Assembly (NCBI GenBank): GCA_045612105.1
Contig: JAZKYL010000113.1
Location: forward strand, 122,315 to 186,314
DNA from: Eubacteriales bacterium
Lineage (GTDB): Bacteria; Bacillota; Clostridia; Oscillospirales; CAG-272
Direction: 5' to 3'
Length of the DNA: 64,000 nt
Position 1 is the first letter of the stretch, and every line of letters begins with the position of its first letter. The translations under genes were made by a program, and so were the position numbers. Shown here piece after piece: positions 36,157 to 57,892 of this stretch. Under the pieces are notes generated by a model that searched no databases, was not told the DNA's origin, and worked only from the letters and a program-made list of their open reading frames with translations.

Positions 36157-36986
36157 TTTTTCTTACCCTTTTTCTCGTTTTCGGATACGTCTGCCTCTGC
36201 CTTAGCGGCAAGCTTTGCCTCTTCGTCGGCTCTCGCGCGGAGAATTGCCTCGGCGAAATAAATGTCCATAGGATCGGTTACCTTGATGTTTTCCCTTGAG
36301 CCTTCTACGAGTTTTACGGGAATGCGGATGTGCTCAAGGAGCGACGCATCGTCGGTTCCTTCGAACTTTTCGTCGCGTGCAATATAGGTAGCCGCACGAA
36401 ACGCGTTGATTTTAAACACCTGGGGGGTTTGCGCCTGCCAGGTCATCTTTCTGTCGGGAGTCTCTTCCACAAACGCGCTCTTATCACCAATCTTTACGGT
36501 ATCGACCGCTTTGATCGCCAACACAGCACCGCCGTGAAGGTATGCTCCATGGCAAGCCTTGTAGATCATTTCACCGGTAACGAGACATCTTGCCGCATCG
36601 TGAATTGCAATATACTTTGATTTATCGTTTACCGCATCCGAGCCGATCCTTGCGGATTCCTGTCTCGTCTCACCGCCTTCAATAACTTTAAACGGTTTTG
36701 TTATTTTATATTCTTCCACAAATCCGTCATATTTTGCTATTTCGTCAGCTTTGGCAACGACTATTATCTCATCAATAAGGGGCGATTTTTCAAACTCAAG
36801 AATAGTTCTGACAACTACGGGCATTCCGCAAAGCTCAAGGAACTGCTTTGTAGAATCTCCACCCATTCTGGTAGAAGAGCCTGCCGCGAGAATGACTGCC
36901 GAGGTATAATATTTTTTGCCCGTTTTGCCGGCTGTCGCGCGCAAGACTTCAGCGACCTTGTGCGCCGTATCTTTTCTTTCTGCCAT
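36153..36986 (-). CDS. ispD: 2-C-methyl-D-erythritol 4-phosphate cytidylyltransferase, with short charged N- and C-terminal extensions
   Basis: [13 protein letters not shown] motif and the IspD fold pattern. Start set at the ATG at 36986 with GGAG SD. The track ORF (to 37052) reads through the upstream repeat element from a TTG. Confidence 0.88.
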
Positions 36987-37108
36987 TATAATCTCCATTC
37001 CGCCGCCAAGCGGCGGCACAAATAGTAATCGATGAATTTTGCCGCACGGCAAAATTCGCGCGTGAAAAAGATCGTTTCACCTTTATATTGGAAGTAACTT
37101 TCACGCTA
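36987..37108 (-). promoter_or_regulatory. copy A of a recurrent ~122-nt three-hairpin leader/intercistronic element
   Basis: H1: GCGUGAAAG…CUUUUUCACGC. H2: GAAUUUUGCC-gugc-GGCAAAAUUC. H3: GCCGCC-gcuu-GGCGGC, followed by GGAG SD and ATG. 104/122 positions are identical (hand count, gapless) to copy C. Confidence 0.7.
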
Positions 37109-37125
37109 ATCAGCCTTTCTGAAAA

Positions 37126-45480: not shown

Positions 45481-48315
45481 TTACTTAACGAGAATTACAA
45501 CGGTTGCAATACCTTCCTTATAGACCTTACTGCCCTTGAAGAAAAGTCTTTCGTCGATGCGAAGATCACATCCGTCGGTATCAACGTCAAGATATATCTC
45601 CGCGTTCTCGGGGATCTTTGTGCAGATATCGACCACGGGAGCGTTGGAACTGATTATCCAACCCGACTTATAGCCTTCGGGAAGTCTCTCTTCCTCAATG
45701 GTAGCAAAGACCGTATTAGCAGGCTCCTTGGTGATCTTATAGGTCTTACCGTCGATAGTTACACCGCAGGTAGCGTCGCCGCGGAAGCCGATAAGCTTAC
45801 CTCTATTACTGAGGCGATACTGAAGCAGGTTCTTGCCCGTGTAGGTAATTTTATGTCCGTCGAGAGAGAACTCATCGAAATCAAGCTCCAGCGGAACCAT
45901 AAGCTCATAGGTCTTGAGGAATTCTGCGTCTGCTTCTTCGTTTCTTCTGAAGCTACCGTCGGGCCAAAGCTCTCTCATAGTCTTGTAATGGCGGCAGAGA
46001 GAGTAGGTGCCGTTGGGGAACTGAGTTGCGAAAAATTCGGTCTTACGGGAGATTGTTTCGGGGGTGTCGATGGCATCCTTGCCACCGTATGCGCCGAGAG
46101 CTTTGAGTACATCGAAGAGTGTGGAGGGAGCGTCGCCCGACTCGCCTGATTGGTCGTCACGGAGACGGCAACCGATATAAGTGGCTCTGCCAAGTCCGTA
46201 CTTGCGAGTAGCACCGATTACGAAATTGTTTGCGTTAGCTACCGCCTCGCCGCTGTTAAGAGTAACGTTATAAACTCTGTCGGGAAGCATATCGGTAGGT
46301 ATCTTCATCTTGGGAATGTCCGAAAGAATGCCGGTGAAATTGACCTCATGAGCCGCGCCGCCCTCAAAAACGGTCTGGGCGGATTTAAGACCAAAGAGAC
46401 GAAGCCATCTTGAGGGAATCTTGCCGTTTTCACCTGCAGATGGAGTTGCGTTCCATACAAGGTTACCGCCTCCGCGTACAAATTTCTCAAGAAGCTCGAT
46501 AAATTTCTCATTGTAGAAAGGCTCAAATCCCACAACGATAGTGGAATAGGTTCCGATGCCAAGCTTCAGCTTGCCTTTTTCAACTGTTCCAAGGTTTACG
46601 ATTCTGTCAGCAGGGCAATAGTTACAGTAGCAGTACTGAACCATCCAGCTTCCGAATCTTTCTTCGATCATAGTCAGATCCTTGGGGTAAACGTAAAGCA
46701 CGTCGATAGCTCTGGGGCGTCCGTAGGTCAATATAGACTCTCGTGTTCCTCTGCCGCCTCCCGAGAAAGAAAGGGAAACGTTATTAAATCTCTTTCTTGC
46801 CTCAGTTGGGAATCCCCAAGCACCCCAGGATGCTACTTCATTTCTGTTAAGAGTGCCGAGAGATGCTGACATAGCTCCGCCGTAGTAGTTACGGTCAAAC
46901 CATCCGCACTCACAGAAGTCGGTTCCGCCGTATGAAAAATAATCATTCCACTTAAAATAATCGTAGCATCCGGAGATAGCCTCACGAATAGTGCTGGAAT
47001 ATACGTAATCGGGTGAATAATCAAAGGTGCAGAAGCCTCTTCTCAGCGCATGATGGAATCTACCCTGACCGCGACCGGGTGCATAATGGTCACAGGTGGG
47101 GGACTCCTGCCAGGTTGCGTGACCGAGGCAGAGGGGATCCCATCCCTCGTGCTTTGCGTAGGTATCTCTGATATAATCTCTTGCCTCACAGCACATACCG
47201 ACTACCTGATCCTGGAGGGTCTCGAAATATACTCGACGCATACGGAAGGTACGGTAGAGGTCAGCCGCGCTGTTGCCTATGACGTGCTGAGTATGCGATC
47301 TTCCAAGATGCTCTCTGTCAGCAAGCATATCGTAGCCGAAATATATAAGAGCCTTATCAAAATCAGCAAAAAGGGGATCGACTGCTGCCAGCTTGCTCTG
47401 GAAATTTTCAGTCATATAGCGGGAGGGAATTTCATAAGGTCCAAAATGAGCAAATCCCCAGTCGAACTGAATGTGCATCTCGTCGGAGTAAAGCTCCATA
47501 AACTCAACGCCCTCGCGACGGTACATATCGATCACGTCGTGAACATACTCGGTCACTTCGGGGTGGAAGTAGTCCATCTCGGGAGTATCCATATAGAAAA
47601 TCGCGAAGATTCGGTTTCCGGGAAGGGAAGTTTTACCTTCTACTACCATATGCTTGTTTCCGAAATAGGTGCTGAGCTCGTAAGGCTCATTACTAATAGT
47701 ACAAGTATAGTCGCTCTCGGGAATTTCCAAGATCGACTCGGGCTTAATAACAAGATAAGCAGTTCCGTTGTCCTCCTCTGTGTATGTGAAGAGTCGCGCA
47801 TGGTTGAACTGAGGATATACGTGACCTTTGTTATTCGTCCAACGCTCTGAAAGAACACCGTTGAATTTGAAGCTGCCGTCAGCTTCTCTGATGCCCTCGG
47901 CAAAGAAGCGGTGCTGACCGCCAACACCCTTATCTTGCTTGAAGTTTCTTCCAAGATCAAGGGGGTTGGTAACACTTGCACCTATTCCAATGCCGTATTT
48001 TTCGGCATATTCCGAGACCTTCTTGGTACAATCGATAAACTCGGGATGAGTCAAATGAAGCTCACGTTCTCCACCGCCGAAGAAATGATCGTGGAAGAAT
48101 GTGATGATCTCTGACTTGCTTTTTTTGGCATTCTCGCAAACATCTTTCAAGGAAGAGCTTGCACCTGAGATCTGATTGTTTGCCATTTTAGGAGTGTACT
48201 GCTCCTCGGGCGCGTTGGCATACGCTCTTAATTGGTCGTCCTCGGTAAGAACGATGCCTTGACGGCGAACCATCGCGTGAAGTGGCGGATTTTTCTTAAG
48301 TTTTGGTGTAGACAT
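45481..48315 (-). CDS. 944-aa uncharacterised cytoplasmic protein, putative glycoside-hydrolase-like
   Basis: Long clean ORF with AGGAGG SD before the ATG at 48315; the track ORF is extended through the leader element. 'YSTIVVGFEPFYNEKFIELLEKFVRGGGNLVW' resembles the GH42-type GATase1-like middle domain. Family not recognised. Confidence 0.55.
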   Translation of the reverse strand: MSTPKLKKNPPLHAMVRRQGIVLTEDDQLRAYANAPEEQYTPKMANNQISGASSSLKDVCENAKKSKSEIITFFHDHFFGGGERELHLTHPEFIDCTKKVSEYAEKYGIGIGASVTNPLDLGRNFKQDKGVGGQHRFFAEGIREADGSFKFNGVLSERWTNNKGHVYPQFNHARLFTYTEEDNGTAYLVIKPESILEIPESDYTCTISNEPYELSTYFGNKHMVVEGKTSLPGNRIFAIFYMDTPEMDYFHPEVTEYVHDVIDMYRREGVEFMELYSDEMHIQFDWGFAHFGPYEIPSRYMTENFQSKLAAVDPLFADFDKALIYFGYDMLADREHLGRSHTQHVIGNSAADLYRTFRMRRVYFETLQDQVVGMCCEARDYIRDTYAKHEGWDPLCLGHATWQESPTCDHYAPGRGQGRFHHALRRGFCTFDYSPDYVYSSTIREAISGCYDYFKWNDYFSYGGTDFCECGWFDRNYYGGAMSASLGTLNRNEVASWGAWGFPTEARKRFNNVSLSFSGGGRGTRESILTYGRPRAIDVLYVYPKDLTMIEERFGSWMVQYCYCNYCPADRIVNLGTVEKGKLKLGIGTYSTIVVGFEPFYNEKFIELLEKFVRGGGNLVWNATPSAGENGKIPSRWLRLFGLKSAQTVFEGGAAHEVNFTGILSDIPKMKIPTDMLPDRVYNVTLNSGEAVANANNFVIGATRKYGLGRATYIGCRLRDDQSGESGDAPSTLFDVLKALGAYGGKDAIDTPETISRKTEFFATQFPNGTYSLCRHYKTMRELWPDGSFRRNEEADAEFLKTYELMVPLELDFDEFSLDGHKITYTGKNLLQYRLSNRGKLIGFRGDATCGVTIDGKTYKITKEPANTVFATIEEERLPEGYKSGWIISSNAPVVDICTKIPENAEIYLDVDTDGCDLRIDERLFFKGSKVYKEGIATVVILVK

Positions 48316-48418
48316 AATAGCCTCCTTTCTGCCGCCGTCGGCGGCAAAAAATAGTGGATGGATTTTGCTTTTCGGCAAGATCCACGCGTAAACCTGCTTT
48401 TTATGCAGGCCTCACGCT
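48316..48418 (-). promoter_or_regulatory. copy B (diverged) of the three-hairpin leader element
   Basis: H1: GCGUGAGG-CCUGC-auaaaaa-GCAGG-UUUACGC. H2: GGAUCUUGC-cgaaaa-GCAAAAUCC. H3: UGCCGCC-gac-GGCGGCA. AGGAGG and ATG follow. Confidence 0.6.
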
Positions 48419-48563
48419 GTCCTCCATTTTCAAGTATTTGGCGACGGGAATATAATTTGTCGCCTTAATCCGCTGGGGTCTTACCCCAAAATATTGACCT
48501 GCACTCTGACTTTTAGTTTTCATGAGCGTCGGCGCATGAGCTTTATTTGCTTATGCTGTGGCA

Positions 48564-48592
48564 ATTATATCACACAAAAAAAGATTTTGCAA
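48564..48592 (-). promoter_or_regulatory. sigma-A promoter (TTGCAA-17-TATAAT) giving a ~240-nt 5' UTR
   Basis: Read on the minus strand. Confidence 0.55.
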
Positions 48593-57191: not shown

Positions 57192-57310
57192 CGTGAAAGT
57201 TACTATCTTTCTTATAGTGAAGCGAACTTTTTCACGCGCGAATTTTGCCTTACGGCAAAATTCATCGATCACAAATTGTGCCGCCGTTTGGCGGCGGAAT
57301 GGAGATTAAT
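57192..57310 (+). promoter_or_regulatory. copy C of the recurrent three-hairpin leader/intercistronic element
   Basis: Fills the entire nagB-to-UPF0340 spacer. H1: CGUGAAAG…CUUUUUCACG. H2: GAAUUUUGCC-uuac-GGCAAAAUUC (57240-57263). H3: GCCGCC-guuu-GGCGGC (57280-57295). GGAG at 57301, ATG at 57311. Confidence 0.7.
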
Positions 57311-57892
57311 ATGTCAGAGAATTATAGAGGTGCAGACGCGACGGTAGACGTAGCATTTGCTGAAGAGATAAGAAAAGCGACCGAAACCGCCATAAACGAG
57401 GCTATTGAGGGCGCAAACATTAAAACGGGAGACATTTTCGTTATCGGTTGCTCCTCCTCCGAGATACTCGGCTCAAAGATCGGTAAGGGCTCAAGCTTTG
57501 AAGCGGCAAGAATAGTTTTTGATACGATATATACCCGTCTTAGCGAAAAGGGAATCCACCTTGCGGCTCAATGCTGTGAGCATCTGAACAGAGCTCTTGT
57601 AATCGAAAGAGAGTGCGCAGAAAAATACGGTCTTGATCCCGTTGCCGTTATCCCTCAGCCCAAGGCAGGCGGCTCATTTGCTACTTTAACCTTTGAAAAT
57701 ATGAAAAATCCCGTAGTAGTTGAGCATATCCGAGCTCACGCGGGACTTGACATCGGTCTTACTCTTATCGGTATGCATCTGCGTGACGTTGCCGTTCCGC
57801 TTCGTCTTTCGGTTAATAAGATCGGTGAAGCCAACATCGTTTGCGCTTACACAAGGCCAAAGTTTATCGGTGGAATCAGGGCAACATATTAA
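57311..57892 (+). CDS. UPF0340/TIGR01440-family protein (YwlG-like)
   Basis: …GDIFVIGCSSSEI…AAQCCEHLNRALV…GLDIGLTLIGMH… is typical of the family. Start at 57311; the track start at 57245 is a TTG inside hairpin H2. Confidence 0.8.
   Translation: MSENYRGADATVDVAFAEEIRKATETAINEAIEGANIKTGDIFVIGCSSSEILGSKIGKGSSFEAARIVFDTIYTRLSEKGIHLAAQCCEHLNRALVIERECAEKYGLDPVAVIPQPKAGGSFATLTFENMKNPVVVEHIRAHAGLDIGLTLIGMHLRDVAVPLRLSVNKIGEANIVCAYTRPKFIGGIRATY

Follow-up and report, generated by a model that had tools for sequence, protein, structure and literature searches.

A three-hairpin repeat between the Shine-Dalgarno sequence and the start codon of genes in gut Clostridia is probably a miniature IS110-type element

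The structured element directly upstream of a 944-aa gene in a 64-kb stretch of clostridial DNA (64,000 nucleotides, hereafter the window) is almost certainly a recent insertion of a member of a repeat family. This family, F1, comprises at least 48 non-redundant copies, including the three of the window, copies A, B and C, of which copy B precedes the 944-aa gene. Comparison of sequences suggests that F1 is probably a non-autonomous miniature element of IS110 type that is mobilised in trans. Both the TD-2-like repeat and the IS110-associated miniature element are kinds already known. What appears to be new here is homing to the spacer that separates the Shine-Dalgarno sequence (SD) from the start codon, together with a replacement SD carried by the element itself; no description of this was found.

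Copy B lies on the minus strand at 48316..48417 and ends 1 base before the ATG (48315-48313) of the 944-aa gene (45481..48315, minus strand). It consists of three hairpins, an SD and a spacer. H1 (48417-48386), which would be the side of the right end (RE) of an IS, closes with GCGUGA...UUACGC around an inner CCUGC/GCAGG hairpin. H2 (48383-48360) reads GGAUCUUGC-CGAAAA-GCAAAAUCC, and after a U-rich linker H3 (48345-48331) reads GCCGCC-GAC-GGCGGC. The second SD, SD2 (GGAGG, 48325-48321), is borne by the element and is now the working SD of the 944-aa gene, while the old SD (GGAGG, AAAATGGAGG, 48425-48421), identified from its context in orthologues, is stranded upstream. A preliminary description of this DNA had given the same order (H1, H2, H3, SD, ATG), the same closing sequence of H1 and the same GCCGCC/GGCGGC core of H3, all of which were confirmed by the coordinates on the minus strand. 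The fold of copy B reaches -46.5 kcal/mol (z = -5.0), which none of 200 shuffles equalled, and the folds of all three copies are much more stable than those of shuffled sequences (z -3.9 to -5.0). The family HMM matches copy B with an E value of 7e-13, the covariance model scores it at 85.9 bits, and as sole query it recovers about 40 family members. No further or degenerate copies were found within the 64-kb window by the covariance model with filters off.

A sigma-70-like promoter (TTGCAA-17-TATAAT, TG-extended) at 48564..48592 on the minus strand is conserved in orthologues of the 944-aa gene. It is older than copy B and lies about 150 nt upstream of it, so that copy B stands inside a 5'UTR of about 250 nt. 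The part of this 5'UTR upstream of the element (48426-48500, minus strand) is also older, being conserved among orthologues that lack copy B. It contains a GGGnnnnCCC hairpin, an invariant GCGGAU and a second hairpin with double-sided pair changes in several of the 5 sequences compared. It has no Rfam match and may represent a distinct RNA that regulates the 944-aa gene in cis. The gene product is without a Pfam domain. At E <= 0.001 there are 648 homologues, of which the best 120 are mostly unnamed or hypothetical proteins of uncultured Clostridia. The gene had been labelled GH-like, and no evidence of a glycoside hydrolase was seen. In one relative (L245) the homologous gene follows a gene with a faint GH28 match.

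Copy B is absent from 9 orthologous loci with 59-88% protein identity (L250, L247, L242, L243, L244, L249, L245, L246 and L248). Six of these orthologues, at 88, 86, 85, 81, 77 and 77% identity, share the dpaA-dpaB context and lack the element, as do three more distant ones. The old SD context, ...GAAA(T)ATGGAGGTAAAC..ATG, is present in all close orthologues of the gene. Empty sites read ...GAAA(T)ATGGAGGTAAACnnTTATGTCT, and the filled site of the window reads ...GAAAATGGAGG[ACAGCGTGAGG...GGCGGCAGAAAGGAGG]CTATTATGTCT. Therefore, copy B represents a lineage-specific insertion between the old SD and the ATG. The earlier view of copy B as a drifted copy under selection at its locus had to be given up, since the element is missing from all nine loci, even from the 88%-identical one.

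Copies A and C are matched by the HMM and the covariance model as well. Copy C (57192-57310, plus strand) lies between a pgl-like gene and a DUF436 gene, with H1 at 57192-57236, H2 at 57240-57263, H3 at 57280-57295, SD2 at 57301-57304 and the ATG at 57311. Two relatives (L251 and L252) are without the element, and there the upstream stop abuts the DUF436 ATG (GGAGAATAATG, GGTGAATAAAATG); the window reads GGCGAGTAA[CGTGAAAG...GGAATGGAGATTAAT]ATG. At these syntenic loci, copies B and C both show clean SD|element|ATG junctions, and neither pair of junctions carries a clear target duplication. Copy A (37106-36987, minus strand) lies between rpiB and ispD of the ispD-ispF pair, with H1 at 37106-37060, H2 at 37057-37034, H3 at 37017-37002, SD2 at 36996-36993 and the ATG at 36986. 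A relative whose IspD is 93% identical (L253) holds only the tail, CGGAATGGAG (TGATTATCGGAATGGAGAAAATAATG). Within the window GGAATGGAG was not seen as a general SD context, and the L253 site is thus a deletion remnant and copy A is older. A long target-site duplication that includes the SD was rejected, since GGAATGGAG is borne by the element and persists as a solo tail in L253. The left flank of copy A (37107-37125, minus strand) holds TTTTCAGAAAGGCTGATTA, which is similar to the 3' tail of copy B (CAGAAAGGAGGCTATTA) and may be the remnant of an earlier B-type unit.

The family was sampled by pattern scans of one genome per species and of metagenomes, followed by an HMM search of the fetched loci. 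Its hosts are metagenome-assembled genomes (MAGs) labelled Clostridia, Eubacteriales or Oscillospiraceae from animal and human gut, JAZNER01 and JAFQPM01 being examples rich in F1, and its members are about 105-125 nt long with three hairpins. All 48 sampled copies run in the sense direction and immediately precede either a start codon or a further unit of a tandem array. They stand before unrelated housekeeping genes (DnaB, AspRS, Ddl, GalE, RNase III, SASP, Hsp33 and others), which excludes a metabolite- or pathway-specific leader; a riboswitch or other sensing leader was likewise rejected, the genes being incoherent and the stems invariant with variable loops. Several units form head-to-tail arrays of 2 or 3 (L110 4786-5052, L053 5333-5575, L044 6816-7019 and L175 1-171), and their junction, GGAG-N4-GCGTGAA, is the same as that between host SD and single unit. 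Neither split nor autonomous copies were found in the fetched loci, no terminal inverted repeats were found in F1, and no Rfam family reached its gathering score in the window or in the loci of F1, F2 and F4. A scan of viral contigs for a phage association gave chance matches only. The matched flanks of F1 are only slightly more alike than unmatched ones, a small effect (p = 0.0016). With neither terminal inverted repeats nor a target-site duplication of fixed length, F1 is not a classical MITE.

As the empty sites indicate, the SD-like sequence before nearly every unit is the former SD of the host gene, and the element brings the working one. A leader peptide or attenuator, as might be read from the SD-like GGAG, the GTG and the frame of 6-10 codons before most units, was rejected on these grounds, the GGAG being the host's old SD. 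As a primary function a leader peptide also fails, the frame being absent or different in copy B, L106, L087 and L038. About half of the F1 units lie in 5'UTRs and not between cistrons, and most have an early stop in the H1 loop. Frames through the whole unit were seen in 4 of about 15 intercistronic copies and in none of about 17 others. A coding repeat was rejected as well, loop lengths differing by non-multiples of three. In copy C a GTG frame of 38 codons without early stop (57193-57309, plus strand) starts in H1, 1 nt past the upstream stop, and its TAA lies 1 nt before the DUF436 ATG; in copy A a GTG frame of 51 codons (37103-36948, minus strand) reaches into ispD out of frame.

The stems of the family are well paired. 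Among 37 full-length copies 96.1% of stem cells pair, compared to 26-56% for slid partners. In the same copies, 4 pairs show changes on both sides (1.5 +/- 0.8 in shuffles, equalled in 1 of 500), and the covariation score is 0.072 against 0.044 in shuffles (0 of 500). Stems and linkers are nearly invariant, and the loops vary in sequence and length (3-6 nt in H2 and 3-7 nt in H3, the arms of H1 being 20-35 nt apart). In copies A and C, H2 is GAAUUUUGCC-N4-GGCAAAAUUC and H3 is GCCGCC-N4-GGCGGC. The second pair of H2 is A-U in these copies and G-C in copy B, and the fifth is U-A in these copies and a C/A mismatch in copy B, as comparison of the copies confirmed for the double change and single mismatch first described. 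The double change had been taken to argue for selection on pairing. The 96% of paired stem cells, the 4 pairs with changes on both sides, the variable loops and the pairing of outer H2 by different sequences in different families (GAAU/AUUC, CGAGU/AC(A)UCG and CAAGGU/AC(G)CUUG) uphold pairing as a maintained feature, but the change in copy B adds little to it. The G-C pair is private to copy B among 48 copies, and when 4 random substitutions, as many as the stem differences of copy B, are simulated in the 20 stem bases, at least 1 Watson-Crick double change occurs in 10-16% of cases, so that the single compensatory pair has no statistical weight alone. A wider set of homologues likewise gave a divided answer to the search for uncompensated changes in H2 and H3: the pairs are kept, but uncompensated changes in F1 are about as frequent as compensated ones, among them 8 A.C cells in H2 and, in L099, a double change to C.C. 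The G-C pair in H2 of copy B is best read as a subfamily difference that keeps the hairpin, and not as compensatory evolution in place.

The same data bear on whether the stems function as single-stranded hairpins or as double-stranded DNA. If H1-H3 were palindromic operator sites for dimeric transcription factors, the arms of H2, a perfect 10-bp palindrome in copies A and C, would be well suited to it. Against such operators stand the variable spacing of the arms in all three hairpins, the bulge on one side of H2 in the sister families, the unrelated housekeeping genes downstream, and the position of copies A and C inside operons, where no promoter-like or terminator-like sites were found on the sense strand. 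In the stems CGAGU/AC(A)UCG and CAAGGU/AC(G)CUUG the bulge occupies the same position. Such bulges and the variable spacing together argue for a hairpin in single-stranded nucleic acid and against a symmetric operator, which is consequently a highly improbable reading. RNA helix and DNA palindrome had been considered inseparable from the sequence alone; the choice is now narrowed, with the palindrome disfavoured.

The mismatches offer some indication of which strand is used. In H2, mismatches that are A.C on the gene strand are G.U on the opposite strand in 8 cases, against 1 of the other kind. On the plus strand H2 of copy B forms 11 continuous pairs, 2 of them G.U, and the helix is interrupted on the gene strand. 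The mismatches of H1 lean slightly the other way (10 G.U and 6 A.C), and the assignment of the strand by G.U versus A.C across all helices is not decisive overall. The strand opposite to the gene is that of the Rfam family TD-2 and also the strand of the IS110 transposase and bridge RNA. TD-1 and TD-2 are multi-copy candidate RNAs of Treponema denticola with unknown function; TD-1 is the reverse-strand partner and was noted as lying 5' of genes (Weinberg et al. 2007, PMC1950547). No later work on them was found in a literature search.

At relaxed thresholds TD-2 (RF03162) aligns to copies A and C along the complete model (1-98 of 98), antisense to the genes. The scores are 28.2 bits for copy A (E 0.016) and 32.4 bits for copy C (E 0.002), below the gathering threshold of 48.7; copy B has no match at E <= 10, and Treponema loci, used as positive control for the model, score 54-92 bits. 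Both families are multi-copy and agree in their three hairpins, whose order on the TD-2 strand is H3-H2-H1 in either case, with a nearly identical H2 core (GAGUUUUGCC-N4-GGCAAAACUC in TD-2, GAAUUUUGCC-N4-GGCAAAAUUC in F1) and with CCGCC/GGCGG in H3. They differ in host, Treponema as opposed to Clostridia, in the sub-threshold scores of copies A and C, and in placement: F1 always lies at a start codon with an SD, whereas TD-2 in Treponema occurs in mixed orientations and mostly away from ORF starts. The full-length alignment, the G.U mismatches of H2 on the antisense strand and the left-end terminus, which reads there as CATTATAATC and resembles a -10 box, would suit an antisense small RNA of TD-2 type, transcribed opposite to the host gene and acting in trans. 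Such an RNA is improbable, considering that the scores are below 48.7 and copy B is without match, that no promoter-like site reading into copy A, B or C was found on that strand, and that it leaves the exact SD/ATG placement and the empty sites unexplained.

Including Treponema TD-2, three sister families have H2 and H3 cores in common with F1. The second is a very high-copy repeat of about 130 nt with four hairpins in rumen MAGs (RUG12020, RUG13741 and RGIG4922), found at L004, L008, L026, L057, L075, L091 and some 20 further loci. Its parts are GCGCGCGCC..GGCGCGC, UUUUUGCC-N4-GGCAAAAA, CUGCGUUAGCAG, UACCGCC..GGCGGUA and a conserved tail; its H2 and H3 cores are those of F1, and it lies away from start codons. 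The third is a multi-hairpin repeat of Flavonifractor, Lawsonibacter, Pseudoflavonifractor and Intestinimonas (L016, L022, L025, L056, L073, L102, L109 and L116) with the H2 core of F1 and the outer stem CAAGGU/AC(G)CUUG, its bulge placed as in Treponema TD-2. For neither of these two repeats did any Rfam family reach its gathering score.

A further reading concerns the sense strand, where the three hairpins could form a cis-regulatory mRNA leader of the host, act through a global RNA-binding protein or on stability or translation, and be selected for regulation of the downstream gene. The strict sense orientation with an SD at the 3' end is in line with this reading, and so is the behaviour of orthologous filled sites, where change in the element is slower than at 4-fold degenerate sites, with 62/76 (82%) against 14/23 (61%) in one comparison (p = 0.05) and 121/125 (97%) against 21/27 (78%) in a second (p = 0.002). 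Some constraint after insertion is therefore real; it could come from element maintenance or gene conversion, or from a host function of the leader. Additionally, the U-rich linker is able to pair with SD2 in minimum-free-energy folds, and REP2 of Neisseria is an earlier example of a repeat with a regulatory effect on the genes downstream of it. However, SD2 is no more masked than the SDs of empty sites, its unpaired probability being 0.42 (0.40 in copy B) against 0.15-0.49, and these probabilities also do not support masking of the SD by an extended H3. The downstream genes have no common function, copies B and C are recent insertions missing from close relatives, near-invariant stems with variable loops are the opposite of riboswitch-type conservation, and the mismatch types of H2 favour the other strand. 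A host leader is accordingly unlikely, though a better candidate than an antisense RNA.

The reading of F1 as a miniature IS110-type element draws on the ends of full-length ISs. When plasmid and phage records were searched by blastn with copy A, the matches covered only the module of linker, H3, SD and ATG. On the plasmid of Roseburia sp. 831b (NZ_CP135163.1), both matches are the outward-facing left-end terminus of an IS110-family IS of 1692 bp, present in two copies with 99.7% identity, whose mutual similarity stops exactly after ...GGAATGGAGATTATTATG. The F1 HMM matches this terminus in both copies with an E value of 1.7e-10 and ends at the IS boundary, the strong match being confined to the last ~46 nt. 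In gene orientation the right end reads [host SD AGGGAG]AAT|CTTAGTGTGAAAG... and resembles the 5' junction of F1, GGAGATTA|GCGTGAAAG. The reverse-complemented right-end termini GCTTGAAAAT and GTGTGAAAG are like the 5' end of F1, GCGTGAAAGT, over 10-12 nt only, after the SD-spacer, and the 5' end of copy B (GCGTGA) likewise resembles the reverse complement of IS110 RE termini.

Relatives of the transposase with 44-49% identity occur in C. tagluense, E. raffinosus, E. faecalis and L. lactis and have homologous left-end termini; the C. tagluense left end scores weakly against F1 (E 1.4) and was assigned by its position and architecture. The ISs of C. tagluense and E. raffinosus each end in a CAT at which an antisense host gene is annotated to start, for a polysaccharide deacetylase in the former and for an SDR oxidoreductase in the latter, and the flank past the right end is the SD of that gene (AAGGAG-ATAAA|GGTTGAAAC and GGAGGG-AAGAA|GTTTGAAAT). 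Two E. faecalis IS copies in different contexts, one of them flanked by GGAGGGGTAA and ATGAATAAT, have an exact common unit from GCTTGAAAAT... to ...TTATAAAT(ATG), and the tail therefore belongs to the IS. The SD|ATG position is thus occupied by full-length ISs as well: by copy 1 of Roseburia, by the L261 copy of E. faecalis and by the ISs of C. tagluense and E. raffinosus. They lie antisense to the host gene, and their left-end terminus doubles as a replacement ribosome-binding site. No Rfam family reached its gathering score in the IS left ends. In the published work, IS110 elements are without terminal inverted repeats, leave a core repeat of 1-5 nt only, are site-specific, move by way of a circular form, and have their bridge RNA encoded within the left end, on the same strand as the transposase (Durrant 2024; Siddiquee 2024). 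A mini-IS of IS110 type with ends of 29 bp and 16 bp is described as moving in trans, and neither an SD/ATG target nor a replacement SD at an outward-facing end was found described in the papers on IS110 elements that were searched.

Several points count against the IS110 reading. Neither the 64-kb window nor the fetched loci with F1 and its sister families, about 1.5 Mb in all, yielded an IS110 recombinase gene, the match is limited to ~46 nt and the right-end likeness to 10-12 nt, and the filled sites evolve slowly. Furthermore, H2 as such was not seen in the sampled full-length ISs, and no bridge RNA or target-binding loops were found for F1 and this IS110 subgroup.

Three further observations were made around these termini. 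The start of the Roseburia transposase CDS (L257 8221-8209; ATGAAAGTTACTT, MKVTY...) and the 5' end of F1 (GTGAAAGTTACTT) have 12 consecutive bases alike (TGAAAGTTACTT), on opposite strands of the IS. On the same plasmid record, the annotated start of the hypothetical protein BIV16_RS15490 (L257 8517-9302, NZ_CP135163.1) lies 14 codons downstream of the ATG of the IS terminus; the reading frame is already open at this ATG (MKVYEFGEKEKPSIMLFPGT...), and the annotated start may be too far downstream. In MT836273.1 ('Bacteriophage sp.', human faeces; L255 1186-1249), a solo module of linker, H3, SD and ATG identical to the Roseburia IS terminus stands directly before an ORF that begins MHYIISDIHGQ..., whose N-terminus looks metallophosphatase-like by eye, and no transposase was found within 1.2 kb of it.

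If F1 is a miniature of IS110 type, it would have arisen by fusion of the right-end terminus of an IS (the H1 side) with the outermost ~100 nt of its left end, which comprise H2, linker, H3 and SD. Parent ISs and miniatures would integrate in one orientation into the spacer between SD and start codon. The outward-facing left-end terminus would carry a hairpin and a new SD, so that the host gene stays translatable, and the old SD would be left upstream, fronting a short dead-end GTG reading frame. Movement would depend on a DEDD recombinase of IS110 type, provided in trans, with a bridge RNA as its guide. The circle junction of F1 would read …CGGCGGAATGGAGATTA|GCGTGAAAG…, and the junctions of tandem units, GGAGATCA|GCGTGAAGG, mimic such a junction of right and left ends. 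Tandem arrays would follow from the fact that each inserted unit recreates the SD-spacer-start target. The stems would be kept as parts of the element, either as the scaffold of an RNA from the transposase strand or as a subterminal recognition structure, and presumably not for regulation of the 944-aa gene. The G.U pattern of H2 and the 11-bp H2 of copy B on the plus strand are consistent with function on the transposase strand. A wider proposal, which should be regarded as speculative, is that a Firmicute IS110 subgroup and its miniatures (F1, possibly also TD-1/TD-2, F2 and F4) evolved homing to translation initiation regions, with insertion between SD and start codon, a new SD provided by the outward-facing end, and the hairpins, on the transposase strand, as retained guide-RNA scaffold; if this is true, some miniatures may still contribute RNA to their own targeting.

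If the IS110 reading is true, a widespread structured repeat of uncultured gut and rumen Clostridia would be given an identity, and TD-2/TD-1, orphans since 2007, would receive a testable explanation. The natural bridge-RNA-guided recombinases of IS110 type would then include a lineage aimed at the SD/ATG spacer, which bears on the target choice of IS110 elements and on the engineering of bridge recombinases. Insertion would be nearly harmless even inside operons of essential genes, since the element rebuilds the ribosome-binding site that it displaces. For annotation, such leaders are easily mistaken for riboswitches, and the adjoining start codons can be called too far downstream, possibly as in the Roseburia record. 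Also, hairpin covariation among copies of a repeat can mirror the subfamily history of a mobile element and not local selection on a leader.

Several known systems can be compared with F1. Integron attC sites, REP/RAYT and IS200/IS605-type elements were considered by their known architectures and set aside; F1 has three separate hairpins without a conserved flanking tetranucleotide, and its orientation follows the gene and not one strand of the window (copies A and B minus, copy C plus). The REP2 repeats of Neisseria and the IR-A/B repeats of Borrelia are more similar in form, being 120-150 bp long, without terminal inverted repeats, with internal stem-loops and a ribosome-binding site, and directly upstream of ORFs (Delihas 2011, PMC3184786). 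REP2 differs in carrying its own promoter, whereas copies A and C have no promoter-like site in the sense direction, and there is no sequence similarity. The mycobacterial MIRU resembles F1 in its intercistronic position, its tandem arrays, its empty and filled sites and its unit-spanning ORFs that abut the flanking genes, as in copy C; it differs from F1 in that most F1 units have the early stop in the H1 loop and about half lie in 5'UTRs. The IS110 family and F1 have in common the lack of terminal inverted repeats, no or minimal target duplication, and site- and orientation-specific insertion, and the 3' end of F1 matches the left-end terminus of the Firmicute IS110 subgroup, its 5' end being similar to the right-end terminus over 10-12 nt only; F1 differs in having no recombinase gene and only ~100 nt of left end. 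Finally, MITEPpu9, the MITE-like partner of the IS110-family element ISPpu9, is proposed to use the IS recombinase in trans (PMC12288879). Like F1, it is non-autonomous and flanked by IS-end-like sequences; unlike F1, which targets translation initiation regions in Clostridia, it contains a gene for an sRNA, and its targets are REP sequences in Pseudomonas.
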